DNA of 64,000 nt from an uncultured Chloroflexia bacterium. GTDB taxonomy: Bacteria > Chloroflexota > Anaerolineae > JAAYZQ01. Every line of letters starts with the position of its first letter. The stretch's first letter is position 1. The stretch covers positions 98,741-162,740 of the forward strand of contig CAVOXA010000007.1 of NCBI GenBank assembly GCA_963700285.1, read 5' to 3'. Shown piece after piece: positions 9,415 to 62,606 of the stretch. The position numbers and the translations under genes were made by a program. The notes beneath the pieces are model-generated. The model searched no databases. It was given only the letters and a program-made list of their open reading frames with translations, and was not told where the DNA came from.

Positions 9415-9954
9415 GTGAACACGAGAAACAGAGTCCATCGATCCAGAATCAGAGGCCAAGATCAGTCCAGAGTTCGCCAGATGTTTCTGCTGTCTGTAAT
9501 CGCTCTGTCTGCGGTGGCGCTGGCCTTTCCTGCAGCGGCTGATGCCGATGTCACACGCCAGCACGACGAGGGGTACGGAACCGCCTGGTACGTGGACCCG
9601 GGTGAGTGGTTCGAGGCGACGCAGGATTCCGTCGCCCTGACCGGCAAGGCTCTGTCCAGCGACGACGAGGGATATGATACCGCCTGGTTCATAGACCCGG
9701 GCGAGTGGTACGAGACGACGGAGGCATCGGTCGCCCTGGCCAGCAAGGCTCTGTCCGGCCGAGAGAGGTACGAAACCGCCTGGTACGTGGACCCGAGTGA
9801 GTGGTCCGAGGCGACGCAGGATCCCGTCGCCCTGACCAGCACGGCTCTGTCCGGCCAAGAGAGGTACGGAACCGCCTGGTACGTGGACCCGGGTGAGTGG
9901 TCCGAGGCGGAAGAAGCCACCTTTGCCTTGGGTGAGACGTGTGAGCAGTGCTAG
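9415..9954 (+). CDS. putative secreted protein with four tandem 32-33 aa aromatic repeats
   Basis: AAGGAGG RBS then GTG, hydrophobic signal-like segment ending AAADA, repeats YxTAW(Y/F)(V/I)DP(G/S)EW, C-terminal CEQC. Confidence 0.75.
   Translation: MNTRNRVHRSRIRGQDQSRVRQMFLLSVIALSAVALAFPAAADADVTRQHDEGYGTAWYVDPGEWFEATQDSVALTGKALSSDDEGYDTAWFIDPGEWYETTEASVALASKALSGRERYETAWYVDPSEWSEATQDPVALTSTALSGQERYGTAWYVDPGEWSEAEEATFALGETCEQC
9571..9930 (+). repeat. in-frame tandem repeat, 4 units of 96-99 bp
   Basis: Units start at ~9571, 9670, 9766 and 9862. Differences preserve the reading frame. Confidence 0.9.
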
Positions 9955-38512: not shown

Positions 38513-40318
38513 ATGAAGCGTCTTGCCGTCGTACTCAGTCTGTTGGTCGTGGTTGCCCTGTTGCTGGGCGCCTGCGGCGCCGCCCCGGAACCCGCGGTGG
38601 TCGAGGTCGAAAAGGTCGTCAAAGAGACGGTCGTGGTCGAAAAAGAGGTCGAGAAGGTCGTCACCGAGGTGGTCGAGGTCGAGAAAGAGGTCGAAAAGGT
38701 CGTCACCGAAGTCGTCGAAGTCGAAAAAGAGGTCGAGAAGGTTGTCACGGCGACACCGCTGCCGAGCGGCCCCAAGTCTGGTGGTCGGGTCGTGGTCGCT
38801 CACCGCCAGGAGCCAGACCGTTTCTGGCAGCCCATCAGTGGCCTGTCGGTGGCTCACGAAGTCGGCGGAGCGATGAACCATCCGCTCGTCGGGCTCGACG
38901 ACAACAGCGAATACTATCCGATCCTGCTGGAAGAGATACCCACGGTCGCGAACGGTGGCCTATCGGAGGATAGCCTGACCTGGACGCTGAAGCTGCGAGA
39001 CGACGTCACGTGGCACGACGGGGAGCCCTTTACGTCAGCGGATGTCAAGTTCACCTACGACATGATGGTGCTGGAAGGCACCGACGTGACCTCGCGGGTG
39101 GGTTGGGACAGCATCGAGTCTGTCGAGACGCCCGACGACCATACGGTTGTCATCACCTTTTCAGAGGTCGATGCTCCGTTCCTCTGGCGTCTCTCGCGAG
39201 CCTCCATCCTGCCCGAGCACATCCTGGGCGGGCTGACCGCGGAGGAGTTCAACGCCGCGGAATGGTTCAGGGCACCGGTAGGCACGGGCCCCTTCATGTT
39301 CAAGGAGTGGGTGGCTGGCGATCACATCACCCTGGTCAAGAACCCCAACTACTTTGTCGAGGGGCTGCCCTATCTGGATGAGGTTGTCTACCGCATCGTG
39401 CCCGATGCCAATACGCTGCTCAACATGACCGAGACGGGCGAGGTGGACGTCCAGTTCCGGGTACAGGACGACCTGGCAGAGCTGCTGGATAGCATGCCGG
39501 ACGTGGACCGGATCACGGTCCAGTCGGTCACTCCCTGGCTGCTGTGGGTCAACAACAACCACCCACTCTTCCAGGACGTGCGCACCCGCCAGGCGCTGGC
39601 CATGGGCTTTGACAAGGAGATCATTGCCCGGGGCATTTTCCGCAACATGAGCCAACCGGCAGACGGGGTGATCAGCCCTCAGCTCGAGGCCTACAACCCC
39701 GATATCGCCATCTTCCGCCACGATCCCGAGGCGGCTGCGGCCCTGCTGGACGAGGTTGGCTGGAAGGACGAGGATGGCGACGGTGTCCGAGAGGCGCATG
39801 GGGTTGAGGGTGTTGAAGACGGCACGCCCCTGAGCTTTGAGACGGCCAACATCGCCGGAGAGCAGATCCGGGTACAGCTTCTGTCACTCATACACGCCCA
39901 GTGGAAGCAGCTAGGCATTGATGCCGAGATAAATCTGGTGGACGTGGGGACGCTATTCGGCGACATGCTTCCCAACAACAACTTTGAGACCGGCTACTCC
40001 TACATTGGCCGCTATGCCGATCCGGACATCGGCGGCCTCTACCTGGACCGCGACACGTACAACAACAAGGCAAACTATGTTGGCTATAGCAATCCCAAGG
40101 TAGACGAGCTGATCCTGGCCAGCCAGCAGACGGCGGATCAGGAGAAGCGGGCCGAGTATCTGAAAGAGGCGCAGGCGATCATCGCCGAGGAAGTACCACA
40201 GATCTTTCTCGCCTGGCGAGCCAACACCACGGCAGTCAATGAGCGTCTGAAGGGCTACAAGCCGGCCCCGGCCACAGACGAGCTGTGGAACATCGCGGAA
40301 TGGTACGCTGAGGACTAG
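38513..40318 (+). CDS. peptide/nickel-type ABC transporter substrate-binding lipoprotein
   Basis: LGAC lipobox, LRDDVTWHDGEPFTSADV, PVGTGPF, AGGAGG RBS. Confidence 0.93.
   Translation: MKRLAVVLSLLVVVALLLGACGAAPEPAVVEVEKVVKETVVVEKEVEKVVTEVVEVEKEVEKVVTEVVEVEKEVEKVVTATPLPSGPKSGGRVVVAHRQEPDRFWQPISGLSVAHEVGGAMNHPLVGLDDNSEYYPILLEEIPTVANGGLSEDSLTWTLKLRDDVTWHDGEPFTSADVKFTYDMMVLEGTDVTSRVGWDSIESVETPDDHTVVITFSEVDAPFLWRLSRASILPEHILGGLTAEEFNAAEWFRAPVGTGPFMFKEWVAGDHITLVKNPNYFVEGLPYLDEVVYRIVPDANTLLNMTETGEVDVQFRVQDDLAELLDSMPDVDRITVQSVTPWLLWVNNNHPLFQDVRTRQALAMGFDKEIIARGIFRNMSQPADGVISPQLEAYNPDIAIFRHDPEAAAALLDEVGWKDEDGDGVREAHGVEGVEDGTPLSFETANIAGEQIRVQLLSLIHAQWKQLGIDAEINLVDVGTLFGDMLPNNNFETGYSYIGRYADPDIGGLYLDRDTYNNKANYVGYSNPKVDELILASQQTADQEKRAEYLKEAQAIIAEEVPQIFLAWRANTTAVNERLKGYKPAPATDELWNIAEWYAED
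38597..38750 (+). repeat. in-frame 42-bp repeats encoding a VEKEVEKVVTEVVE linker
   Basis: About three copies right after the lipobox. Confidence 0.8.
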
Positions 40319-49304: not shown

Positions 49305-50324
49305 TTATAGCTTGCCGCTTTCCCGGGCCTCCCGGTGGGCTTGGGCCGTATCCTCGTCCGTCAGCCGGGCATAGATGCGCGTCGTGGTTGGGGATGCGTG
49401 CCCCAACAGGTCCTGGGTGGCGGCCAGATCGTGGGTCGCCGTAAGGACCCTGGTGGCGAAGCGATGACGCAGGAGGTGAGGGGTGATGGACTCATCGACG
49501 CCGGCGAGGTTACATAACTCGTTGATTGCTGTCCGGGCGGTGTTGGTAGAGATGGGGAGGATTCTGCTGCCCGCCCCCCGGTCGTGGCGGGCAAAGAGCG
49601 GCAGTGAGGCCAGTGCCCGGCCAGAGACACCATCCGTCCGGGCCTTGAGATAGTGGGTGAGTGCCCCCCATGCCCGGTCATCAAAGTAGACCAGGCGCTG
49701 CTTGCGTCCCTTGCCCGTGGCGATGGCAGCCTGTCGCTCATAGTCCAAGTTCCCGCGGCGCAAGCCGACAACTTCACCGACGCGCGCACCGGTACAGCGC
49801 AGCGTCTCCACCAGGGCGATGTTCCGCAAGCGGCGGAGCAGGGCGCGCTTACCCTGGGACGAATTGGGCTCGTCAGGGGGCGGCACCGCGTAGGCGGCCT
49901 GCACCAGCGCCTGCACCGCGTCCTCAGCCGGCACGTGGGGCAGGGGGCGTGGGGTCCGGCGGCCGCGGACGTCACTCAGGCGCTCCTGCAGCCGGGCATA
50001 GTCCGCGATCTCAAAGCTGGCCTTGCCCTCCAGCAGGAGCCAGCGGTAGAAGCGCATGAGGGCCGTCAAATAGTTGTCCAGCGTGGCCGAGCTGACCGGG
50101 TTTTCGTCCTGGAGCCAGCGCACGAAAGACAGGGCCATGTCAGGCGTGATGGCGGTGACCGGCATCTGGTCGGGGGGCTCTTGCGTCTCGGCACAGAACG
50201 CTTCAAAATGGCGCAGGGACGTGCTGTAGGCCTCCACCGTGTGGCTCGAACGCCGGATGCCAAGGTCCCGGCGAAAGCCATCGACTGCCTCGGTTACGGA
50301 AAGGATGGAGTTTTGATTTGACAT
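49305..50324 (-). CDS. tyrosine recombinase, XerC/XerD-like
   Basis: TGARVGE (R), GKGRKQR (K), TPHLLRH (HxxR), LLGHAS, TTRIY (Y). Confidence 0.93.
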   Translation of the reverse strand: MSNQNSILSVTEAVDGFRRDLGIRRSSHTVEAYSTSLRHFEAFCAETQEPPDQMPVTAITPDMALSFVRWLQDENPVSSATLDNYLTALMRFYRWLLLEGKASFEIADYARLQERLSDVRGRRTPRPLPHVPAEDAVQALVQAAYAVPPPDEPNSSQGKRALLRRLRNIALVETLRCTGARVGEVVGLRRGNLDYERQAAIATGKGRKQRLVYFDDRAWGALTHYLKARTDGVSGRALASLPLFARHDRGAGSRILPISTNTARTAINELCNLAGVDESITPHLLRHRFATRVLTATHDLAATQDLLGHASPTTTRIYARLTDEDTAQAHREARESGKL

Positions 50325-50343
50325 AATGCTCTTTGTCTTTCAC
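50316..50343. promoter_or_regulatory. dif-like 11-6-11 site overlapping the recombinase start codon
   Basis: Plus strand ATTTGACATAA-TGCTCT-TTGTCTTTCAC. Minus-strand arm TTATGTCAAAT is one mismatch from the E. coli XerD arm TTATGTTAAAT. Confidence 0.5.
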
Positions 50344-50580
50344 CCGATGGGCTGTTCGTGCCCGGCCATGGCTCTACGCCCGGGCTGTACGGCGGCAGTG
50401 TTGCGCATTGAAGGCTCAGCCTGCTACAGATAAAGCCAGACAGCGCCTATCGCGTGGCACTGCTGGGCCTGATCTACCAGCGGCTCAGGTGCGCTCTGGA
50501 CGGTATAGTAGGGGGAGCATCGGGCCGACGCTCCCAGGCCCCACGGAAGGGAACCGGCCCGCTTCCCCTTTGACTATTTT

Positions 50581-50608
50581 GCTTAGCACAACTGACATTG
50601 TCACAAGT
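50581..50608. promoter_or_regulatory. second dif-like 11-6-11 site near the predicted transcription start
   Basis: GCTTAGCACAA-CTGACA-TTGTCACAAGT, imperfect inverted arms. Confidence 0.45.
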
Positions 50609-50619
50609 ATCTTTCGGGC

Positions 50620-50648
50620 ATTGTACCACGATCTGGGGGCTGTGTCAA
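50620..50648 (-). promoter_or_regulatory. sigma70 promoter facing the recombinase gene
   Basis: Minus strand TTGACA-17 bp-TACAAT with TG extension. Confidence 0.75.
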
Positions 50649-50681
50649 GCCCCCTCGTGAGCTTGCTACGGCTGTTGCCAA

Positions 50682-50810
50682 GTCGTCATCGCGAGCGTCA
50701 GCGCCTGTCCCGCGCATGTCCTGAGTCCGCGAAGGGCCTGCCGAGGGAAAGCGATCTCCACTTGTGCCCTGGGGATTGCCACGGCGCAAACAGCGCGCCT
50801 ACTAATGACA
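50682..50810 (-). repeat. inverted copy of the composite repeat at 17361-17489
   Basis: Reverse complement aligns along nearly its whole length, including the nested insert. Confidence 0.85.
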
Positions 50811-50816
50811 CCGACC

Positions 50817-50938
50817 TGTCACTGCGAGGCCCGCCGTTTGGGCCGAGGCACCGCCACGAGGCCTCGCAGTGACAGTCTCCACTTGTGTAGTTGGGGATTG
50901 CTTCGCTCCGGCAAAAAGCGCCTCCGCTCGCAATGACG
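50817..50938. repeat. adjacent GTCA(C/T)TGCGAG...CTCGCAATGAC-type repeat with an internal extra hairpin
   Basis: TGTCACTGCGAGGC...GCCTCGCAGTGACA, then GGGGATTGCTTCGC...CTCGCAATGAC. Confidence 0.75.
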
Positions 50939-50962
50939 AGGTCAGGTGTCATTCCATCCTAC

Positions 50963-52165
50963 TCAGTCTACCCCATTGCCTTTCTGCTCGGCAAAGGCTC
51001 TCTTGGCTTCGTCCAGGTTGTCCGGATCGGCCAGCAGATCGAGCGCGGTCATGGCCAGCGCCTTGGCCGCGGCGATGAGGCCAGCGTGGCCGGCCTCGGA
51101 GGCCGATGCTTCGCGGAACTCGTTGGTGTGTCCTGGCAGGTCATCCGGCCCAATAGAGATGTAGGGGTGGATGGTGGGCAGGACCTGGCTGACGTTGCCA
51201 ATGTCCGACGAGCCCATGCGCTCGCCGCCGGTGGCGACCTGGACTTCCAGGCCCAGCGCTTCCAGGTTTTCCTTAAAGAGCGCGACCATCTTGGGGTTGG
51301 GCAGCCTGGCGTCGTAGCGTGGCCCGGTCTGTTTGAACTCCATGCGGGCGCCGGTGGCCAGCGCGGCGCCCTCGGCGCAGGCCCTCACCTTCTCCACAAC
51401 CTCCGCGGCGTAGGGCGTGTCGGCCGCGCGAACGATGAACTCGGCCGAGGTATAGTCGGGTACGATGTTGGCCGCGTCGCCGCCGTGGCGGATGATGCCA
51501 TGGATGCGTACGTCGTCCCGCACATGCTGGCGCAGGGCGTTGATGCCGCTGAACGTAAGCAACATCGCGTCCAGAGCATTGATGCCCACGTCCGGCGCAG
51601 CGGCTGCATGAGCCGCCTTGCCGTAGAACTCGATGCCCAGGGGATAGGCGGTCAGCGCCGTGCGCCCCAGCATGTTGACGTTCGAAGGATGGATCATCAT
51701 GGCTGCGTCTACATGCTCAAAGACACCCGCGTCGACCATGATTGCCTTGCCGCCACCACCCTCTTCCGCGGGTGTGCCGATCACCTGGATCGTCCCGGCC
51801 AGGGCAGGGAGCAGCGGCTGGAGGGCCAGGCCTGCCCCCACCGCTGCGGCAGCGATGATGTTGTGCCCGCAGGCGTGTCCCAGACCCCGTAGGGCATCAT
51901 ACTCGGCCAGGATGGCGATAACAGGTCCCCCCCCTGCGCCAACCTGGGTGCCAACAAAAGCTGTCTCCAGCCCGGCCACGCCCCGCTCGACAGCAAATCC
52001 GTTTTCCTCCAACACCCTGGTCAGCATCGCCGCTGACTCGTACTCCTCAAAACCCAGTTCTGGCGTAGCATGGATGGCGTCGGAGAGGCGGATCAACTCA
52101 GCCCGCCTGTTTTCTACCTCTGCGATAGCGCCTGCCTTCAGTTCCTGCATGTCACTCATGTTCAT
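50963..52165 (-). CDS. M20 amidohydrolase (ACY1L2/AbgB-like), paralog 2
   Basis: PELGFEE, AEYDAL, GHACGHN, GTPAEEGGGGK, GSSDIGNVS. Confidence 0.93.
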   Translation of the reverse strand: MNMSDMQELKAGAIAEVENRRAELIRLSDAIHATPELGFEEYESAAMLTRVLEENGFAVERGVAGLETAFVGTQVGAGGGPVIAILAEYDALRGLGHACGHNIIAAAAVGAGLALQPLLPALAGTIQVIGTPAEEGGGGKAIMVDAGVFEHVDAAMMIHPSNVNMLGRTALTAYPLGIEFYGKAAHAAAAPDVGINALDAMLLTFSGINALRQHVRDDVRIHGIIRHGGDAANIVPDYTSAEFIVRAADTPYAAEVVEKVRACAEGAALATGARMEFKQTGPRYDARLPNPKMVALFKENLEALGLEVQVATGGERMGSSDIGNVSQVLPTIHPYISIGPDDLPGHTNEFREASASEAGHAGLIAAAKALAMTALDLLADPDNLDEAKRAFAEQKGNGVD

Positions 52166-53355
52166 CCCTGCTCGGCTTTCTGCGCTTCGAAGGCGCGCTT
52201 GGCCTCGCTCACCTTGGCTGGATCGGCCAGCAGATCGATGCCCGTCATGGCCAGCATCTTGGCCGCTTTGATCATTCCCTCATGACCTGCCGGCGAGCCA
52301 GAAGCCACCTCAAACTCGGCCGTGTGCCCGCCGATCTCCTCGGGCCCTATGGCGATGTAGGGATGGACCGCCGGGACCACCTGGCTCACGTTCCCCATGT
52401 CGGTGGAGCCCATCCGTTCGTTGGGTTCCGGGGCTTCGACCTCGATGCCCAGGGCGGCCATGTTGGCCTCGATGATGGAGGCCAGCACGGGGCTGGGCAT
52501 CATGGCATCGTAGCGAGGCGCGTATTCGGTAAAGCTCAGGCGGGCGCCGGTGGCCAGCGCCGCGCCCTGGGCGCAGGCCCGCACCTTCTCGAACACCTCG
52601 GTGCAATAGGGGGTATCCGCAGCCCGCACGTAGAACCTGGCGGCCGCGTATTTTGGCACGATGTTGGGCGCGTCGCCGCCGTGGGTGATGACGCCGTGGA
52701 TGCGGGCGTCGTCGCGCACGTGCTGGCGCAGGGCGTTGATGCCGTTGTAGGTCAGGATCAGCGCTTCCAGGGCATTGATGCCCTCGTCCGGCCTGGCGCC
52801 GGCGTGGGCTGGCTTGCCGTAGAACTCGATAAAGATCTTGTAGCTGGCCAGCGAGCGCCGGCGCGTCATGTTGTGGTAGGAGGGATGGAACATCATCGCC
52901 GCATCGACCCCGGCAAAGACTCCCCGGTCAACCATGGTCCCTTTGCCTCCGCCCCCCTCCTCTGCCGGGGTGCCGATGACCTTCAGCGTGCCAGCCAAAT
53001 CGGGCAGGACCGCCTGGACCGCCAGTCCGGCTCCGACGGCGGCCGCGCCGATGAGGTTATGTCCACATGCATGGCCCAGGCCGGGCAGCGCGTCGTACTC
53101 GGCCAAAAAGGCCACCGTGGGCCCACCTCCCTGCCCTTCCATGGTGGCTACAAAGGCTGTGTCGAGGCCGGCTACCGCACGCTCGACGGCAAACCCGTTT
53201 TCCTCGAGCGTGCGGCTCAACAGCGCCGCAGACTCGTACTCTTCGAAGGCGATCTCGGGCTTGGCATGGATGGTGTCAGCCAACTGGATCAACTCCTCGC
53301 GCCGGGCGTCTATTTCGGCGATGACTCTTTGTCTCAATTGGTCTACGTTGCTCAT
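52162..53355 (-). CDS. M20 amidohydrolase (ACY1L2/AbgB-like), paralog 1
   Basis: PEIAFEE, AEYDAL, GHACGHN, GTPAEEGGGGK, GSTDMGNVS. Confidence 0.93.
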   Translation of the reverse strand: MSNVDQLRQRVIAEIDARREELIQLADTIHAKPEIAFEEYESAALLSRTLEENGFAVERAVAGLDTAFVATMEGQGGGPTVAFLAEYDALPGLGHACGHNLIGAAAVGAGLAVQAVLPDLAGTLKVIGTPAEEGGGGKGTMVDRGVFAGVDAAMMFHPSYHNMTRRRSLASYKIFIEFYGKPAHAGARPDEGINALEALILTYNGINALRQHVRDDARIHGVITHGGDAPNIVPKYAAARFYVRAADTPYCTEVFEKVRACAQGAALATGARLSFTEYAPRYDAMMPSPVLASIIEANMAALGIEVEAPEPNERMGSTDMGNVSQVVPAVHPYIAIGPEEIGGHTAEFEVASGSPAGHEGMIKAAKMLAMTGIDLLADPAKVSEAKRAFEAQKAEQG

Positions 53356-53364
53356 GGTCTTTTC

Positions 53365-54120
53365 CTATTCCTCCATAAAGTCTTCTAGAAACTCGACGGC
53401 CTTGACCAGCGCTGCCTCGATGATGGCCCGTCCCAACTCTTCGCTGGCCTGGGTCGCGTCTCCCAGTGCGCCGTTGGCCGTGATCTCGTCAAAGCGGTAG
53501 GCGTAGGCCAGGCTGTAGCCCTGGCCCAGGTTCCGGTACGGATAGCCCTTGAATTTTCCGGGCGCCAGCGCCTCGCGGCGTACCGTGTGCGGCGCCAGAA
53601 ACAGCGCCTGCGAGATCTCACCTTCGCAGGCATGTCCAGCGGGATCCGACAGCACCCGCTCTTTTATGACGTCGCGGCCCAGAGAGGTAAAGCTGGTCCA
53701 GGCAACCTTGACCCCCAGTTCTTGTCGCAGCTTGACGATGCTGACACCCAGCGAGGCACTGTTGCCGCCGTGCCCATTCAGGATCAGGAACCTCTCCAGC
53801 CCATGCTGGTGGAGGCTCCAGACCACGTCGTAGACGGCGGCCATAAAGGTCTCGGGCCGCAGGGTGATGGTCCCGGGAAAGTTCATGTGGTGGTACGATA
53901 CTCCCAGATTGATGGCCGGCGCCAGGATGGTGTCTGGGTAAGTCCGGGCCGCCAGCAGCTTGCCGAAGGCGTAGGCCCGTCCGGTGTCGACCTCAAAGGT
54001 GCCGTTTGGTCCGTGTTGTTCAAAGGATCCGACGGGCACCAGGGCCACCTTGGCCTGCGACAGCGCTTCCCTGGCCTCGGGCCAGGTCATTTCTGGTAGG
54101 ATGAAAGCTTGGTTCTCCAC
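53365..54120 (-). CDS. creatininase family amidohydrolase
   Basis: GTG start after AGGAGG. MTWPE, GSFEQHG, NGHGGN, GHACEGE. Confidence 0.9.
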   Translation of the reverse strand: MENQAFILPEMTWPEAREALSQAKVALVPVGSFEQHGPNGTFEVDTGRAYAFGKLLAARTYPDTILAPAINLGVSYHHMNFPGTITLRPETFMAAVYDVVWSLHQHGLERFLILNGHGGNSASLGVSIVKLRQELGVKVAWTSFTSLGRDVIKERVLSDPAGHACEGEISQALFLAPHTVRREALAPGKFKGYPYRNLGQGYSLAYAYRFDEITANGALGDATQASEELGRAIIEAALVKAVEFLEDFMEE

Positions 54121-54377
54121 TGTATTCCTCCTGCGTGGGATCGCGTGGACTGTGTCCCCGCACTTTGGGGATCGGGTCCACGCTGAGCTTGCCAGCCTGG
54201 CTTGTGCTGGACCATGTGGTCCGCCTAGGGCGGTTGTCTGGAATCTCAACGAAAAGGGCAAGCCAGGTGGCCTGCCCTCGTAACAGCGGGATCGCGGTAC
54301 GCTTGATGACCACATCGCGACCCACTCGCAGCGACAGCGTTGTCGACCACGTGCTTGCTTCTGGCGCTAACTCTGCA

Positions 54378-55322
54378 CTAGCCCTCTGCCTTGTACGGAT
54401 CCAAGGCATCCCGCAGTCCATCGCCGATAAAGTTGATGGCGATGACGGTGACAAAGATCATCAGTCCGGGAAAGATGGCCGTCCATGGGGCACGGGTCAT
54501 CTGATCCTGGGCGTTTTTGAGCATGTTGCCCCAGGTCGGCGTGGGCGGCTGGACGCCAAAGCCCAGGTAGCTCAGGCCCGACTCGGTGATGATAGAGGTC
54601 GCAACGCGGAAGGTGGCGGCCACGATGATAGGACTCAGGGCGTTGGGCAGCAGGTGGCGGCTCATGATGCGCCCGTTGGAGGCGCCCACGCAGCGCGATG
54701 CCTCGGTGAACTCTTTTTCCTTGAGCGACAGGAAGGAAGCCCGTACCAGGCGGGCTACCTGCATCCAGGCCAGCACGGCGATGACCAGCACGATGGTCAA
54801 CACGCTGGCAAAGGCTGTACCCTTCAGAGCCGGGATGGGAATGTCGCGTAGGGCCAGGGCCAGGATGATCAGGACAAAGAGTTGGGGAAAAGAGAGCATC
54901 ATGTCGGTGAAACGCATCGCCAGGTTGTCGATCCAACCCCCGTAAAAGCCGCCGACGCCGCCGATGATGGCCCCGACCGTCACGGCCAGCCCCATGGCCA
55001 GGATGCCGATGCTCAGGGAAACCCGGCCGCCGTAGAGAATGCGGGTCAACAGGTCGCGCCCCAGCTCGTCGGTACCCATAAAGTGCGTAAGCGAGGGCGG
55101 CTCCAGCCTGGAATCCAGATCGGTCTTTTCCGGGTCCCAGGGCGAAATGACGGGCGCGAGGATGGCGGCCAGGACCAAGATGAGAAGGATGGTGGCGCCG
55201 ACCATGGCCGGCTTGTGGCGCCGGAAAGAGCGCCAGACCATCTGGGTCATGGTCTGCTCTTGCCGATAGGCTGGCCCCATCGATAGATCAGCTATGGTCC
55301 TTGTATTCTCTGCTTCTGACAT
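54378..55322 (-). CDS. ABC permease, DppC/OppC type
   Basis: MGTDELGRD, HLLPN, GDGLRDALDP. Confidence 0.95.
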   Translation of the reverse strand: MSEAENTRTIADLSMGPAYRQEQTMTQMVWRSFRRHKPAMVGATILLILVLAAILAPVISPWDPEKTDLDSRLEPPSLTHFMGTDELGRDLLTRILYGGRVSLSIGILAMGLAVTVGAIIGGVGGFYGGWIDNLAMRFTDMMLSFPQLFVLIILALALRDIPIPALKGTAFASVLTIVLVIAVLAWMQVARLVRASFLSLKEKEFTEASRCVGASNGRIMSRHLLPNALSPIIVAATFRVATSIITESGLSYLGFGVQPPTPTWGNMLKNAQDQMTRAPWTAIFPGLMIFVTVIAINFIGDGLRDALDPYKAEG

Positions 55323-55362
55323 AGACTATCCTTCCAGACCTTCAGTCGCCGGTATGAGCATC

Positions 55363-56616
55363 TCAATCGAAGCGGATGCGGGGATCGAGAAAGGCATAGA
55401 GAATGTCGGCGACGATGTTAAAGGCGATGATGAGCATGGCCGTGATCATCAGGTAGCCCATCATGACCGCATAGTCGACACGCTGGGCCGAACGGAAGTA
55501 CAGCTTGCCCATCCCCGGCCAGCTAAAAATGGTCTCGGTGAAGAGCGCTCCGGCAAACAGGATGGGTAGTTCGAGGGCCATGATGGTCACGATGGGGATG
55601 GCCGCGTTTTTGATGGCGTGGCTCCAGATGACGGCCCGTTCCGCGAGACCCTTGGCGCGGGCCGTGCGGATATAGTCCTGATGGATCACCTCCAGCATGC
55701 TGGAGCGCGTGTAGCGCATGTACTGGGCCGCCCCAAAGACGGCCAACATGGTTACCGGCAGTATCAGATGCCAGATGCGGTCCCACAAGGGGACATAGCC
55801 CAGTTCTTGCTTGAGGCGCACATCGTACATGCCGCCGCCCGGGAAGAGGGGCTTGCCGGCCAGGGCCTCCGGGGCAAAATCAGGCCAGGTGAGCGTCGAG
55901 TGAAAGACGATGATCAGGATGAGGCCGAACCAAAAGATGGGGATCGACCGGCCTGCGTAGGCCAGGATGGTAAAGACGTGGTCCGTCGTTGAGTACTGCT
56001 TCAGGGCGGTGATGATGCCCAGGGGTATGCCGACCAACAGGGAACCAATGAAGGCCAAGCTCATTAGTTGGAGGGTGGCCGGGATGCGCTCCAGCATCAT
56101 CTCCAGGGCAGGACGGCGTTCGACGTTGGAGCGACCGAAGTCTCCCTGCAGCAGGGCAAAAAGCCACTTGAAGTAGCGGCTGTCTAAGGGGTTGACCTTG
56201 ATACGCAAGTTCGAGCGATAGGTCCAACCTGTGACGCGCGATGGGACGTCCAGTATCTTGACATAGACGCCCGTATCGTTCTTTTCTTCATCCACTACCG
56301 CCACCCGGGTACCGGCGCCGACCTGGCCCGTCTCCTTGGGCTCCGTCCCTCCTGCTTCCAACCCCGGCGGCTTGTTGTAAAGGACGGTATACTCGTTGAC
56401 GACGCCCGAACTCCCCCGAAAATTCAGAAAGGCCGGCTGCCGGAGCCCCAGTCGGTATTCCAGCATGGCCATGTCCTCGGGGGTGAGGTTCGGGTTGTCC
56501 TCATAGATGGCCAAAGGATCGACCGGGCTGATCATGATCAGCCCGTAGACGATGATGCTGATGAAAAACAGGGTCGGCACGGCCTGCAGAAGCCGGCGAA
56601 TGATGTACCGAGTCAT
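55363..56616 (-). CDS. ABC permease, DppB/OppB type, with ~80 aa insertion
   Basis: YIIRRLLQAVPTL, DYIRTARAKGL, DPRIRF. Extra segment between RLGL and RYFKWL. Confidence 0.92.
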   Translation of the reverse strand: MTRYIIRRLLQAVPTLFFISIIVYGLIMISPVDPLAIYEDNPNLTPEDMAMLEYRLGLRQPAFLNFRGSSGVVNEYTVLYNKPPGLEAGGTEPKETGQVGAGTRVAVVDEEKNDTGVYVKILDVPSRVTGWTYRSNLRIKVNPLDSRYFKWLFALLQGDFGRSNVERRPALEMMLERIPATLQLMSLAFIGSLLVGIPLGIITALKQYSTTDHVFTILAYAGRSIPIFWFGLILIIVFHSTLTWPDFAPEALAGKPLFPGGGMYDVRLKQELGYVPLWDRIWHLILPVTMLAVFGAAQYMRYTRSSMLEVIHQDYIRTARAKGLAERAVIWSHAIKNAAIPIVTIMALELPILFAGALFTETIFSWPGMGKLYFRSAQRVDYAVMMGYLMITAMLIIAFNIVADILYAFLDPRIRFD

Positions 56617-56706
56617 GCACGCTCCCTTCACAGTCCAGAGACGCTCTGGCTCAGATTCTCCCGGTTCCCCTCCGAAAGTGTCTGCTTGTCACCAGAATGA
56701 AACGGA

Positions 56707-56740
56707 GATTGGCGGGCTGCCCATGGGCAGCCCGCCAATC
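56707..56740. terminator. perfect 34-bp palindrome after the SBP gene
   Basis: GATTGGCGGGCTGCCCATGGGCAGCCCGCCAATC. Confidence 0.75.
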
Positions 56741-56759
56741 ATCTAGTCAGCTTGTGGAG

Positions 56760-58604
56760 TTACTTTTCGATATACCACTCTTCGGCGTTCCAGGAGCCGG
56801 TAGAGGTCCAGACATTGGCTTCGTAGCCCATAAAGTGATCGCGCATCAGGTCGATATCCGCGCGGTCATAGAGGTAGATATGCGGGCGCCCCTCGGCAAT
56901 CAGCTCAGACCCTTTCTGGTAGGCCTCCTTGCGGACTGTCAGGTCAGGGCTGGAACCGGCGATGGCCATTTGCGCATCAAACTCCTCGCTGATCCAGCGA
57001 GAATAGTTAAAGCCCCCGCCCGCGTTGTCTTCACAGGGAGAGTTGTAGGAAGCATAGTAACCGTCCATCTGGCTGTGTGGATCGGTACCATACGAGGTCG
57101 TGTACATCAGGATGTCAAACTGACCGTGCTTGCGGAAGGCGCCGCTGGAGAAGCTGCCGAACAGCTCCGCACTGGGCACGTTCTCGATGAACATCTCGAT
57201 GCCGATGTCGGCCATCATCTCCAAGATCACCTGCTCGGCCTGCTCGCGCAGGGAGTTGCCCGACGTGGTCTGGAGCTTGAGCTTCAGAACCGTTCCATCG
57301 TCGGCGGTGGCGCAGCCATTGCACTCGCGGACGCCATCGCCATCGCTGTCGGTCCAGCCCGCTTCCTCCAGCAGGGCCATGGCCTTCTCCGGGTTGAACT
57401 CGCTCTCCGGGATATCGGGTGCGCCCCAGCCCAGGTTCATCTCTGTGGTACCGACCGTCGCCAGGCCGAAAAGCAGCTTGTCGACGATGGTTTGCTTGTC
57501 GATGCCCAGTTCGATGGCCTCCCGAACTTTTGGATCCCCCAGAGCCCAGTGCGGGGAGGGGTTCTCCATCAGCCACTCGGCGCAGGGGGCGTCCAGTTCC
57601 GGATCGACCAGGTTGAGTAGGAGTCGCTCCGTTCCGGTGCTGGGCGGCATGCTGACCTTTACGCCCTCCCACGTCTCAGCCTCCGGGATGTCCGCCTCGA
57701 TCAGGTCCCATACAAAGTCGAGTTCGCCGGTCTGGATGAGCTGCTTGCCCACCTCGCGGCTCTCGATCCAGCGCATGATGATCGTGTCGACGTAGGGTTT
57801 GCCCTCCGTCTCCCACAACCAGTAGTTCTCGTTGCGAACCAGGGTCATGCTGTCCCCCGAGATCCATTCCTGCAGCTTGTAGGGCCCCAGGCTCAGCGGC
57901 TGGCGATTGAGCTCCCATTCCTGCATCTTGGCCGGGTCCAGGCCGAGGTGGCTGGGAAGTATGTCGTCGTCGAACATCATCAGGTAGGGCGCATAGAACT
58001 CGGAGTACTTGACCACGACCGTCATGTCGTTGTCTTCGCAGGTGACTGATTCCATGACCTCATAGCCAGTGGTGCTCACCGCGCCACTCTCGGGGTGCGT
58101 GACCGATTCCCAGCCAAATACCACGTCCTGGCAATCAAAGGGGTCGCCATCCTCCCAGAGGATGCCCTCTTTCAGCTCGTACTTGACGGTCAAGCCGTCC
58201 TCTGAGACGAGGCCGTTCTGCACGCTGGGCACTTCTTTGGCCAGCTCGGCACGGTACTGGCCGTCGGGCCCAGCCACTACGAGCCCGCTCTCGAAAAAGT
58301 CTCCGGCCCAGCTTGCTACCGTCTGGGTGCGGATGAGCGAGTTCAGCAGTTCCGGCTCCTGGTAAAAGCCCAGGACCAGGGTGCCGCCCTGCATGTCGGC
58401 GCCGGGCATGGGGGCCTCCGTCGGCGGGGGATCGGTTGGTGCGGGTGCTTCGGTCGCCGCGGGCGCCTCGGTTGGCGCTGCTGCTTCTGCTTTCGTGGGT
58501 TCTGGGGCAGGCGCTTCCGGCTCTGTGGCCCCGCCACAGGCGGCCAACATGCCGGCCACCAGGACCAGGATCAAGAATAGGCTCAATACGCGCTTCTCAG
58601 ACAT
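56760..58604 (-). CDS. peptide-type ABC substrate-binding lipoprotein
   Basis: LAACG lipobox, P/T/E/A linker, LKEGILWEDGDPF, VREAIELGID, LLEEAGW.DSDGDGVRE. Confidence 0.93.
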   Translation of the reverse strand: MSEKRVLSLFLILVLVAGMLAACGGATEPEAPAPEPTKAEAAAPTEAPAATEAPAPTDPPPTEAPMPGADMQGGTLVLGFYQEPELLNSLIRTQTVASWAGDFFESGLVVAGPDGQYRAELAKEVPSVQNGLVSEDGLTVKYELKEGILWEDGDPFDCQDVVFGWESVTHPESGAVSTTGYEVMESVTCEDNDMTVVVKYSEFYAPYLMMFDDDILPSHLGLDPAKMQEWELNRQPLSLGPYKLQEWISGDSMTLVRNENYWLWETEGKPYVDTIIMRWIESREVGKQLIQTGELDFVWDLIEADIPEAETWEGVKVSMPPSTGTERLLLNLVDPELDAPCAEWLMENPSPHWALGDPKVREAIELGIDKQTIVDKLLFGLATVGTTEMNLGWGAPDIPESEFNPEKAMALLEEAGWTDSDGDGVRECNGCATADDGTVLKLKLQTTSGNSLREQAEQVILEMMADIGIEMFIENVPSAELFGSFSSGAFRKHGQFDILMYTTSYGTDPHSQMDGYYASYNSPCEDNAGGGFNYSRWISEEFDAQMAIAGSSPDLTVRKEAYQKGSELIAEGRPHIYLYDRADIDLMRDHFMGYEANVWTSTGSWNAEEWYIEK

Positions 58605-58828
58605 TGCTTCTTCCTCCTTTGGGGTGTCTCAAACGACCGTGTAATCGAACCGAACCAGCCAACAACAGCTTGCCTCAAAGAAATGGTTCACCTCCTCTCT
58701 ATGCCACCTGCAATCACAGTTTGTACTAGGGAAAAGCCATCATGGGTCCTGGGAGCGACCTAACGTAGCCAAGTCTTGCATAGTACCCAGATTTCCGAAT
58801 TCGTGTGGGCCAGTGGAACACGCTGACC

Positions 58829-58857
58829 AGTATACCAAAGGATCGCCGTCCTGTCAA
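58829..58857 (-). promoter_or_regulatory. sigma70 promoter of the second ABC operon
   Basis: Minus strand TTGACA-17 bp-TATACT with TG extension. Confidence 0.8.
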
Positions 58858-58960
58858 GTCGGCGCTTCAGGCCTTTTATGTCCGTTGTCGCCCATTTGCG
58901 GATGGCCCTCGAGTCCCCGGCCCCAAAGCGGTTCTCGCCCAGGGGCGCAGCTTGAGCCAG

Positions 58961-61443
58961 GTCAGGTCCTGCTCGTAGTGCGCGTTTCAACGCGCTACTT
59001 GAGCTGCAGGTCGAGCCTCTACCCGGAACGGCGCTGAAGCGCCTACTACGAACGGTTCTCGCCTCGGTCAGGTCCTGCTCGTAGTGCGCGTTTCAACGCG
59101 CTACCTGAGCCGTAGGTCGAGCCTCTACCTGGAACGGCGCTGAAGCGCCTACTACGAACGGTTCTCGCCTCGGTCAGGTCCCGTTCGTAGTGCGCGTTTC
59201 AACGCGCTACCTGAGCCGTAGGTCGAGCCTCTACCTGGAACGGCGCTGAAGCGCCTACTACGAACGGTTCTCGCCTCGGTCAGGTCCTGCTCGTAGTGCG
59301 TGTTTCAACGCGCTACCTGAGCCGCAGGTCGAGCCTCTACCTGGAACGGCGCTGAAGCGCCTACTACGAACGGTTCTCGCCTCGGTCAGGTCCTGCTCGT
59401 AGTGCGCGTTTCAACGCGCTACCTGAGCCGCAGGTCGAGCCTCTACCTGGAACGGCGCTGAAGCGCCTACTACGAACGGTTCTCGCCTCGGTCAGGTCCC
59501 GTTCGTAGTGCGCGTTTCAACGCGCTACCTGAGCCGTAGGTCGAGCCTCTACCTGGAACGGCGCTGAAGCGCCTACTACGAACGGTTCTCGCCTCGGTCA
59601 GGTCCCGTTCGTAGTGCGCGTTTCAACGCGCTACCTGAGCCGTAGGTCGAGCCTCTACCCGGAACGGCGCTGAAGCGCCTACTACGAACGGTTCTCGCCT
59701 CGGTCAGGTCCCGTTCGTAGTGCGTGTTTCAACGCGCTACCTGAGCCGCAGGTCGAGCCTCTACCTGGAACGGCGCTGAAGCGCCTACTACGAACGGTTC
59801 TCGCCTCGGTCAGGTCCTGCTCGTAGTGCGCGTTTCAACGCGCTACCTGAGCCGCAGGTCGAGCCTCTACCTGGAACGGCGCTGAAGCGCCTACTACGAA
59901 CGGTTCTCGCCTCGGTCAGGTCCTGCTCGTAGTGCGCGTTTCAACGCGCTACCTGAGCTGCAGGTCGAGCCTCTACCCGGAACGGCGCTGAAGCGCCTAC
60001 TACGAACGGTTCTCGCCTCGGTCAGGTCCCGTTCGTAGTGCGCGTTTCAACGCGCTTCCTGAGCCGCAGGTCGAGCCTCTACCTGGAACGGCGCTGAAGC
60101 GCCTACTACGAACGGTTCTCGCCTCGGTCAGGTCCCGTTCGTAGTGCGTGTTTCAACGCGCTACCTGAGCCGTAGGTCGAGCCTCTACCCGGAACGGCGC
60201 TGAAGCGCCTACTACGAACGGTTCTCGCCTCGGTCAGGTCCCGTTCGTAGTGCGTGTTTCAACGCGCTACCTGAGCCGTAGGTCGAGCCTCTACCTGGAA
60301 CGGCGCTGAAGCGCCTACTACGAACGGTTCTCGCCTCGGTCAGGTCCCGTTCGTAGTGCGCGTTTCAACGCGCTACCTGAGCCGCAGGTCGAGCCTCTAC
60401 CTGGAACGGCGCTGAAGCGCCTACTACGAACGGTTCTCGCCTCGGTCAGGTCCTGCTCGTAGTGCGCGTTTCAACGCGCTACCTGAGCCGTAGGTCGAGC
60501 CTCTACCTGGAACGGCGCTGAAGCGCCTACTACGAACGGTTCTCGCCTCGGTCAGGTCCCGTTCGTAGTGCGCGTTTCAACGCGCTACCTGAGCCGCAGG
60601 TCGAGCCTCTACCTGGAACGGCGCTGAAGCGCCTACTACGAACGGTTCTCGCCTCGGTCAGGTCCCGTTCGTAGTGCGCGTTTCAACGCGCTACCTGAGC
60701 CGTAGGTCGAGCCTCTACCTGGAACGGCGCTGAAGCGCCTACTACGAACGGTTCTCGCCTCGGTCAGGTCCCGTTCGTAGTGCGCGTTTCAACGCGCTAC
60801 CTGAGCTGCAGGTCGAGCCTCTACCTGGAACGGCGCTGAAGCGCCTACTACGAACGGTTCTCGCCTCGGTCAGGTCCTGCTCGTAGTGCGCGTTTCAACG
60901 CGCTACCTGAGCCGCAGGTCGAGCCTCTACCTGGAACGGCGCTGAAGCGCCTACTACGAACGGTTCTCGCCTCGGTCAGGTCCCGTTCGTAGTGCGTGTT
61001 TCAACGCGCTACCTGAGCCGTAGGTCGAGCCTCTACCCGGAACGGCGCTGAAGCGCCTACTACGAACGGTTCTCGCCTCGGTCAGGTCCCGTTCGTAGTG
61101 CGCGTTTCAACGCGCTACCTGAGCCGCAGGTCGAGCCTCTACCTGGAATGGCGCTGAAGCGCCTACTACGAACGGTTCTCGCCTCGGTCAGGTCCCGTTC
61201 GTAGTGCGCGTTTCAACGCGCTACCTGAGCCGTAGGTCGAGCCTCTACCTGGAACGGCGCTGAAGCGCCTACTACGAACGGTTCTCGCCTCGGTCAGGTC
61301 CCGTTCGTAGTGCGCGTTTCAACGCGCTACCTGAGCTGCAGGTCGAAGCCTCTACCCGGAACGGCGCTGAAGCGCCTACTACGAACGGTTCTCGCCTCGG
61401 TCAGGTCCCGTTCGTAGTGCGTGTTTCAACGCGCTACTTGAGC
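58961..61443. repeat. tandem array of 23 complete 106-bp units plus a partial unit (REP-doublet/BIME-like)
   Basis: Period 106 bp (unit starts 58961, 59067, 59173 ... 61293, partial at 61400, one unit 107 bp). No long ORF. Each unit has two inverted GTAG-headed palindromes. Confidence 0.97.
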
Positions 61444-62606
61444 CCACGGATGGCTGGAAGATACGCCTCTGGCGACCGGATCATGGCCGCCAGGAGCGCG
61501 GCCCGCTCGGGCAGGGAATGCAGATACACGTACTCGTGCAGTGCATGAGCGCCATCGCCGACGGGTCCCATGCCGTCCAGCGTGGGTACGCCCAGGGCTG
61601 CGGTAAAGTTCCCGTCAGAGCCACCGCCAGTTCCCGATTCCGTGATCTCAAAGCCCATCTCCTCCGCAAAAGCCTCGGCCTGGGTGAACAGGGCCACGAT
61701 CTCTGACGTCCGGACCATCGGCGGGCGGTTCATGCCGCCGGTGACTTCCAAGGTGGTGCCTTCGAGGTGTGGCCGCAGCCCCCGCATCTCGACCTCAAGG
61801 CGAGTCGCCTCTTCGACGCTCGTGACGCGCATGTCTATCTCGGCCGAAGCCTGCGCGGGGATGACGTTGCTGCGCGTGCCCCCTCTGACCACGCCGACGC
61901 TGACGGTGGTACCGGCCTCATAGTTGGTGAGCGCCTGGATGGCCAGGATCTGGTGGGCCAGTTCCTCGATGGCGTTGACGCCCTTGGCGTGGTCGGCTCC
62001 GGCGTGGGCCGAACGGCCGGTCACAGAGATCCCGTACATGCCCACCCCTTTGCGCCAGGTTTTTAGCGCCCCCTGCGTGGTTTGAGCTGGTTCCAGGCAG
62101 AAAACGACGTCGTGCTGAAGCGCTTCGGCCTCGATGATGGGGCGCGAGGTAATGCTGCCGATTTCCTCGTCAGAGGTGAGCAAAATGGTTACCGGTTGGC
62201 CGGCTGGCAGGTCCAAATCGCGCAGGGCGCGGATGGCCCACAGGCTGTTGGTTATGCCGCCCTTCATATCAAAGGCCCCAGGGCCATAAAGCTTGCCGTC
62301 CTCCACGCGGATGGGCCGCTCGGCCACGGTTCCCACGTCCCAGACGGTGTCCATGTGACAGATCAGCAGGGCGCCACCTGGACCATGGCCCCAGCGGGCC
62401 TTGACGTGGTTGCCGGCCCGATCCTGGGAGAGGATCTGTACCTGGCCGCCCAGGTCCTGCAACTGTTCGGCCAGAAAGGCACTGAGCCGGTCCAGGGCCG
62501 CCTTGTCGAGGGTAGGTGATTCTGTCTCGACGATCTGCGCCAGCGATGCGGCCATCTCGTGCTGATGGTCGCGAAGGTAAGCCAGGATCCGTTGGTTGTC
62601 GGTCAT
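61434..62606 (-). CDS. M20 metallopeptidase (glutamate carboxypeptidase/CPG2-like)
   Basis: CHMDTV, GPGAFDMKGG, SDEEIGS, GRSAHAG, GGGSDGN, GAHALHE. Confidence 0.93.
   Translation of the reverse strand: MTDNQRILAYLRDHQHEMAASLAQIVETESPTLDKAALDRLSAFLAEQLQDLGGQVQILSQDRAGNHVKARWGHGPGGALLICHMDTVWDVGTVAERPIRVEDGKLYGPGAFDMKGGITNSLWAIRALRDLDLPAGQPVTILLTSDEEIGSITSRPIIEAEALQHDVVFCLEPAQTTQGALKTWRKGVGMYGISVTGRSAHAGADHAKGVNAIEELAHQILAIQALTNYEAGTTVSVGVVRGGTRSNVIPAQASAEIDMRVTSVEEATRLEVEMRGLRPHLEGTTLEVTGGMNRPPMVRTSEIVALFTQAEAFAEEMGFEITESGTGGGSDGNFTAALGVPTLDGMGPVGDGAHALHEYVYLHSLPERAALLAAMIRSPEAYLPAIRGLK

Follow-up and report, generated by a model that had tools for sequence, protein, structure and literature searches.

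The Locus and Its Repeat Array

The stretch of DNA analyzed here (the window; 64,000 nucleotides) lies on contig C7 of G000, a metagenome-type assembly of 7.05 Mb in 22 contigs with a completeness of 89% and a contamination of 6.5%. A tandem repeat array is located between an M20-family peptidase gene and the first gene downstream, which encodes an oligopeptide-type ABC substrate-binding protein (Table 1); both genes are found on the same strand, as a first-pass annotation made from the sequence alone had described. As assembled, the array comprises 23.4 copies with a period of 106 bp and 97% matches (Tandem Repeats Finder, score 4639), which can be split into 22 units of 106 bp, one unit of 107 bp, and an incomplete 24th unit that stops after hairpin A. 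In all 47 hairpins of the array, GTAG is found 5′ of a short palindrome. Their orientations alternate, with 24 hairpins of type A on the plus strand and 23 of type B on the minus strand; REP B is inverted relative to REP A, and the GTAG ends point outside. The linker remnant a short way left of the array is, judged from its sequence, likely a decayed earlier unit.

Table 1: Features of the array locus and of the cognate transposase gene. Positions refer to the window unless a contig is given.
Feature	Position	Strand	Basis
Oligopeptide-type ABC substrate-binding gene, first gene downstream	56760..58604	-	
Putative sigma70-type promoter of the ABC operon, TTGACA-17-TATACT, extended -10	58829..58857	-	11/12 consensus match
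Remnant of the right-hand linker of a unit, a short way left of the array	58929..58939	+	sequence
Tandem REP doublet array, 47 REPs, A+ / B- alternating	58960..61444	.	repeat finding and hairpin scan
Unit identical to the array consensus	60550..60655	+	unit splitting
REP A of the consensus unit: GTTC-GTAG-T, perfect 7-bp stem, TC loop	60561..60585	+	scan and fold
REP B of the consensus unit: GTTC-GTAG-TA, perfect 6-bp stem, TC loop	60620..60643	-	
M20-family peptidase gene	61434..62606	-	last codons and TAG stop inside the array sequence
RAYT gene, 197 aa	G000:C22:208154-208747		NF047646, 83.1 bits versus cut-off 80

Apart from the final codons of the M20 gene, no ORF of at least 90 amino acids is present in the array, and no Rfam covariance model matched positions 58500-61700 at E≤1, meaning that no known structured RNA was detected there. 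The array, to which this examination was confined, is extragenic save for its overlap with the M20 stop. A CRISPR array was ruled out, since there are no unique spacers and whole 106-bp units recur at 97%. When folded as single-stranded DNA, the two pairing registers of the doublet are nearly equal on the plus strand (-26.7 versus -26.1 kcal/mol; z about -3 against shuffled sequences) because the REPs alternate in orientation, which is true of any alternating REP array; the outer helix is weakened by a two-base variant in 8 of the 24 unit starts. Thus, the first-pass description of 23 non-coding REP-doublet units of 106 bp, with two distinct hairpin motifs and alternative fold registers, is borne out.

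Other tandem repeats in the window are found at 9568-9909 (96 bp × 3.5), 38603-38748 (42 bp × 3.5), and 58441-58487 (18 bp × 2.6), the last of which sits in a Pro/Ala/Thr/Glu linker of the ABC binding-protein gene. Positions 49305-58604 (minus strand) also include, past the ABC genes on the downstream side, genes for an amidohydrolase resembling creatininase/MftE, an M20 amidohydrolase that has a similar neighbour, and a XerC/D-like recombinase.

Variation among the Units

The 22 units of equal length fall into 13 haplotypes. Among six polymorphic sites, all four allele combinations occur in 12 of the 15 pairs, and linkage is seen only for two sites that are 2 bp apart. Neighbouring units are no more alike than shuffled ones (P 0.61 at lag 1). 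Four-combination pairs were counted in further arrays of the assembly, with 15 of 21 on C22, 25 of 28 on C6, and 0 of 3 on C10, the latter being unlike the others; in two arrays of other genomes (L056 and L071), the variants form contiguous blocks. A single rolling-circle burst would yield identical or periodic units, which the scattered variants without neighbour similarity do not resemble; this leaves repeated exchange afterwards or a scrambled consensus.

Strand-specific deamination was considered as a source of the variants and rejected: eight of nine variant sites in the window are C/T-only, yet no bias is seen over 11 arrays (C>T 15, A>G 14, G>A 13, and T>C 10). For replication-strand bias, the GC skew was too noisy to assign strands.

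The REP Family and Its Cognate Transposase

A scan for the GTAG head and hairpin, tolerating one stem mismatch, detected 279 sites of the family in 42 clusters on eight contigs of G000, while the reversed genome, used as a control, gave none. Single REPs make up 22 of the clusters; the biggest hold 47 (the array under study), 44, 37, 24, 20, and 19 REPs, so that the search for other arrays which the first-pass annotation had proposed was successful. The length of the unit depends on the locus and ranges from 48 to 168 bp. At the stem pair beside the loop-closing pair, C-G is found 137 times, A-T 92 times, T-A 49 times, and a mismatch once. There are 13 stem mismatch events overall; read on the GTAG-bearing strand, G·T rather than A·C is seen in eight of the nine events of these two kinds (p=0.02). 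This excess would fit the GTAG-bearing strand as the one that must fold, and it argues modestly for maintenance of the hairpin on that strand. The family is spread unevenly, with 110 sites on the 344-kb contig C22, which carries the RAYT gene, and five on the 1.85-Mb contig C1; none was detected by the hairpin scan on C5 and C15, so that C22, C7, C6, and C9 contrast with C1, C5, and C15. In a class-wide count, 134 matches were obtained in G000 versus at most 28 in each of the other 300 genomes, a comparison which is confounded by the collapse of arrays in fragmented assemblies.

The cognate RAYT, which the first-pass annotation had suggested looking for, is encoded on C22. A genome search with Pfam PF01797 (Y1_Tnp) missed this gene and returned four other Y1 genes, with which it was found by tblastn; it was also recovered by NF047646, above the cut-off. 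The best PDB match of the protein is TnpA-REP of E. coli (4ER8, E 1.2e-8). The gene is flanked by the same REP family, with six REP A singlets upstream and, on the downstream side, 44 REPs arranged as doublets of 108 bp. His85-Tyr86-His87 and Tyr145 are invariant in ten of ten aligned sequences, leaving the HuH motif and the catalytic tyrosine intact. The earlier reading of the repeats as GTAG-headed REP doublets of the BIME/REPIN type is supported. According to Table 1 of PMC6006769, the motifs NHYH, WY, and YIHYNP, the proline-rich N-terminus, and the length of 197 amino acids fit TnpA-Y1 subclass 2.8, an assignment that is based on motifs and not on the HMM, clustering, or tree of that study.

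Some match to the C22 RAYT is present in 20 of the 41 genomes searched. All four closest orthologues (G001, G004, G009, and G013; 69-88% identity) are flanked by GTAG-T hairpins, as are two further loci at about 50% identity, while the five loci scanned next, at 28-40% identity, lack flanking GTAG-T hairpins. At least two GTAG hairpins lie beside the gene at 30 of 49 close loci in other genomes, one of which may duplicate an orthologue locus. Most close relatives from named genomes belong to filamentous cyanobacteria, and several to Chloroflexota; the host of G000 is probably a member of the Chloroflexota. The identity to the filamentous cyanobacterial and Chloroflexota proteins (L050-L098) is 58-69%, with look-alike REPs, which hints at a possible cross-phylum transfer of the RAYT. 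A quick RAYT tree, from which 4 of 38 rows were dropped for stops, in which two rows (L027 and L030) stood in the wrong frame, and which has an unresolved base and no subclass reference members, was not used for any conclusion.

In G000, NF047646 has six matches, two of them above the cut-off, and several have their own distinct flanking repeats. The second RAYT above the cut-off (G000:C22:44917-47570) lies between two arrays of approximately 0.8-1 kb built on another family of palindromes, which lacks the GTAG head; more arrays of that family occur on C4, C5, C7, and C10. Three RAYT-like genes below the cut-off (G000:C10:223154-223792, 1333625-1334665, and 1496680-1497399) are each bracketed by their own perfect or near-perfect palindrome, one of them with a 5 × 83-bp array upstream. 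Behind an IS200-like Y1 transposase gene (G000:C22:117507-119288; NF033573, above the cut-off), a hairpin unit of 185 bp is repeated in 6.3 tandem copies, and a related copy lies upstream of the gene.

The Orthologous Site in a Congener

The congener G001 (same genus), whose flanks are 89% identical to those of G000, has the same gene order with two units at the orthologous site versus 23.4 in G000, and the gap between the matched flanks is 477 bp versus 2525 bp. In this one congener compared, the two units at the same site indicate a lineage-specific expansion and support local amplification, which the first-pass annotation had named, in a rolling-circle-like form, as one possibility. The identity among the units (97%) exceeds that of the flanks (89%), which points to recent amplification or homogenization in G000, while two genomes cannot prove the direction of change. 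In both G001 units (L023, G001:C4:82650-82803), the REP B loop contains an insert of 24 bp, which appears to be another small repeat lying within the first one, and the approximately 120 bp between the M20 stop and the repeats in G001 are missing in G000.

Orthologous sites in G001 were placed by both flanks at eight of the 16 loci tried, six of them arrays, to which the C6 array was added. Six of these seven comparable arrays are longer in G000, among them two of another REP family, namely those beside the second RAYT (965 versus 6 bp and 972 versus 127 bp); the seventh, upstream of the cognate RAYT, is similar, with six versus eight REPs. Among the G001 arrays examined, the number of units reaches 5.6. 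The G001 copy of the cognate RAYT has two 1-nt insertions, which are either real or sequencing errors.

Relation to Known REP Systems

The following comparisons refer to the accessible parts of the cited papers. Tandem REP doublets whose copy number varies among strains have been described (PMC3333891, PMC3116915, PMC2613905), as have RAYT-based models of their amplification (PMC3333891, PMC2817692). The array under study resembles the BIME-2 of the E. coli REPtron (TnpA-REP/YafM; PMC3333891) in its tandem inverted REP pairs, fixed linkers, and GTAG head, and in units that are uniform per locus and differ across loci, with the E. coli copy number varying between strains; in both systems, the RAYT gene is bordered by arrays. 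Unlike the long bulged stems of E. coli (PMC3333891), the stems of the window array are perfect and short (6-7 bp, 2-nt loop), y and z2 REPs in the strict E. coli sense are not found, the RAYT belongs to a different subclass, and there are 47 REPs in one array. With its inverted REP doublets in tandem and regular linkers, the array is a BIME-2-like tandem REPIN array, which works like BIME-2 without being one in the strict sense.

The subclass 2.8 REPtrons share with the C22 RAYT the NHYH HuH motif, W[YH], YIHYNP, and the proline-rich N-terminus; their RAYTs are approximately 199 amino acids long, compared to 197 here, and are likewise associated with GTAG REPs (PMC6006769). The REPs of that subclass are called "long canonical" in the available text of PMC6006769, while those of the window have 6-7-bp stems placed 1-2 nt from GTAG. 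Recognition rules for perfect-stem REPs have been reported (PMC8266576), as have switches of the REP variant beside one RAYT (PMC3686654).

Repetition in tandem of a doublet with its flank is also known from the REPIN clusters of Pseudomonas fluorescens SBW25 (PMC3116915) and the SMAG arrays of Stenotrophomonas maltophilia (PMC2613905), for which a 103-bp dimeric unit and copy numbers varying by strain are documented in these two sources. The largest SBW25 cluster mentioned in the accessible text has 12 REPs (PMC3116915) and the largest S. maltophilia locus 17 repeats (PMC2613905), so that the array, with 47 REPs in 23 doublets, is very long by these published figures, as the first-pass annotation had claimed. 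Unlike in SBW25 and S. maltophilia, most REPs of the G000 family sit in arrays rather than in dispersed doublets. A further close system, likened by description and not as a sequence family, is that of the GTAG-23 repeats of Thermomicrobium roseum, where 87 elements are grouped into large blocks (PMC3733652). Within open-access text and a few of the supplements, no published account was found of the REP family of G000 or of an array with 23 doublets. The type of element is already known, then, and what is new is a long example with an identified subclass 2.8 RAYT.

Possible Function of the Array

The final approximately 11 bp of the M20 reading frame fall inside the array, from which the gene takes its stop codon; REP ends often provide TAG stops (PMC3733652). 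The putative promoter of the ABC operon lies downstream of the array at a distance of about 100 bp and precedes the ABC gene by 225 bp (one such promoter found versus 0.2 expected), and its sequence is identical in G001. Because of this position, the array cannot attenuate transcripts from that promoter. Most likely, the array is neutral or parasitic DNA. Its sole likely effect on expression would be incidental: forming the 3′ UTR of the M20 transcript, it would dampen read-through and, by analogy to an E. coli REP, could only stop or stabilize M20 transcripts.

A selected regulatory role of the array is considered very unlikely, whether as an insulator or an attenuator tuned by copy number that would act between the M20 gene and the ABC operon, or as a platform for protein loading. 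The 3′ UTR position on the strand of the ABC operon would suit such a role, as would the report, in the available part of the preprint, that an E. coli REP acts as a partial Rho-dependent terminator and mRNA stabilizer (bioRxiv 10.64898/2026.03.23.713779); the strong RNA fold of three units (z -5.5) would be produced by any REP array. The attenuator proposed in the first-pass annotation is weakened by the operon's own promoter past the array, kept in G001, where the same genes are present with two units, and by the long arrays at many unrelated loci of G000. Moreover, the stem variant seen most often, in 6 of 24 A hairpins, leaves a tolerated wobble pair on the plus strand and gives a mismatch in the minus-strand mRNA. 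Contigs from RNA runs that contain the unit sequence were rejected as evidence of transcription, since strand, locus, and DNA carry-over are indistinguishable in them.

Origin of the Array

The array consists of 23 REP doublets of the hairpin family that flanks the subclass 2.8 RAYT, and it probably grew in place from a RAYT-seeded element of one or two units. Its identity is well supported; as to the engine of amplification, we infer a course modelled on the work on E. coli TnpA-REP. The RAYT would seed a REP doublet element of one or two units at the site, bind the single-stranded GTAG hairpin and nick nearby, and add units locally by strand transfer; in a later step, the few variants would be shuffled through unequal exchange or conversion among the units. 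One base pair sets the stems of the window array apart from those next to the RAYT gene (T-A or C-G versus A-T), so that recognition of exactly the window variants by this RAYT can only be presumed. On inspection, the junction between units does not look like a CT join, which is where the E. coli enzyme cleaves (PMC3333891).

Possibly, though this is not the favoured course, the RAYT placed only the first doublet, and replication slippage at the hairpins or unequal exchange of the RecA type expanded the array, implying a lineage that is generally prone to tandem expansion. The expansion in G000 of a second REP family with a RAYT of its own speaks for a host-wide cause as much as for the C22 RAYT. 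The greater length of six of the seven arrays comparable with G001 and the free combination of alleles without likeness of neighbours would suit such a host engine, and a second mechanism for ordered clusters has been suggested in PMC3116915. Against it stands that the non-coding arrays detected by Tandem Repeats Finder are nearly all built on hairpin families flanking Y1 transposase genes, and that G000 has an intact RAYT above the cut-off for both families compared, while the G001 copy of the cognate RAYT carries the two insertions, possibly sequencing errors, mentioned above.

It is improbable that the copy number or the order of the units is an artefact of assembly or consensus, arising from a population of variable length or from reads out of register. 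The metagenome-type assembly, with indel errors visible in other arrays, would allow for it, and the scattering of variants in the window array differs from the blocks in L056 and L071. Nevertheless, 13 distinct haplotypes among 22 units do not represent one unit copied, and contigs of up to 2.1 Mb continue across arrays into flanks that are unique and syntenic. In two other studies, Illumina contigs contain a head-to-tail junction of the 106 period (X4) and the two-base allele in the same linkage (X2), showing tandem structure and alleles independently, but for at least two units and not for 23. The best public run contained 0.35 of the words of the flank, all matches being contigs, and no contig bridging the junction of the M20 gene and the array was found in public runs.

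Beyond growth in place at this locus, a genome-wide burst of REP-array amplification may have occurred in the lineage, involving several REP families at once, with variants shuffled at a scale of 10-50 bp; this broader reading is tentative and rather doubtful. How REP doublets become tandem arrays is presented as a model rather than a result in the accessible parts of the literature (PMC3333891, legend to Fig. 7; PMC2817692, discussion). Having several arrays of 10-23 units, an intact cognate RAYT, and a congener in the short state, G000 makes the question of amplification easier to test. If the burst were true, the arrays would preserve a natural record of how BIMEs are amplified, pointing to repeated strand transfer by the RAYT or to conversion in patches and away from a single rolling-circle burst, and the 197-amino acid subclass 2.8 RAYT would provide a handle for testing that mechanism.
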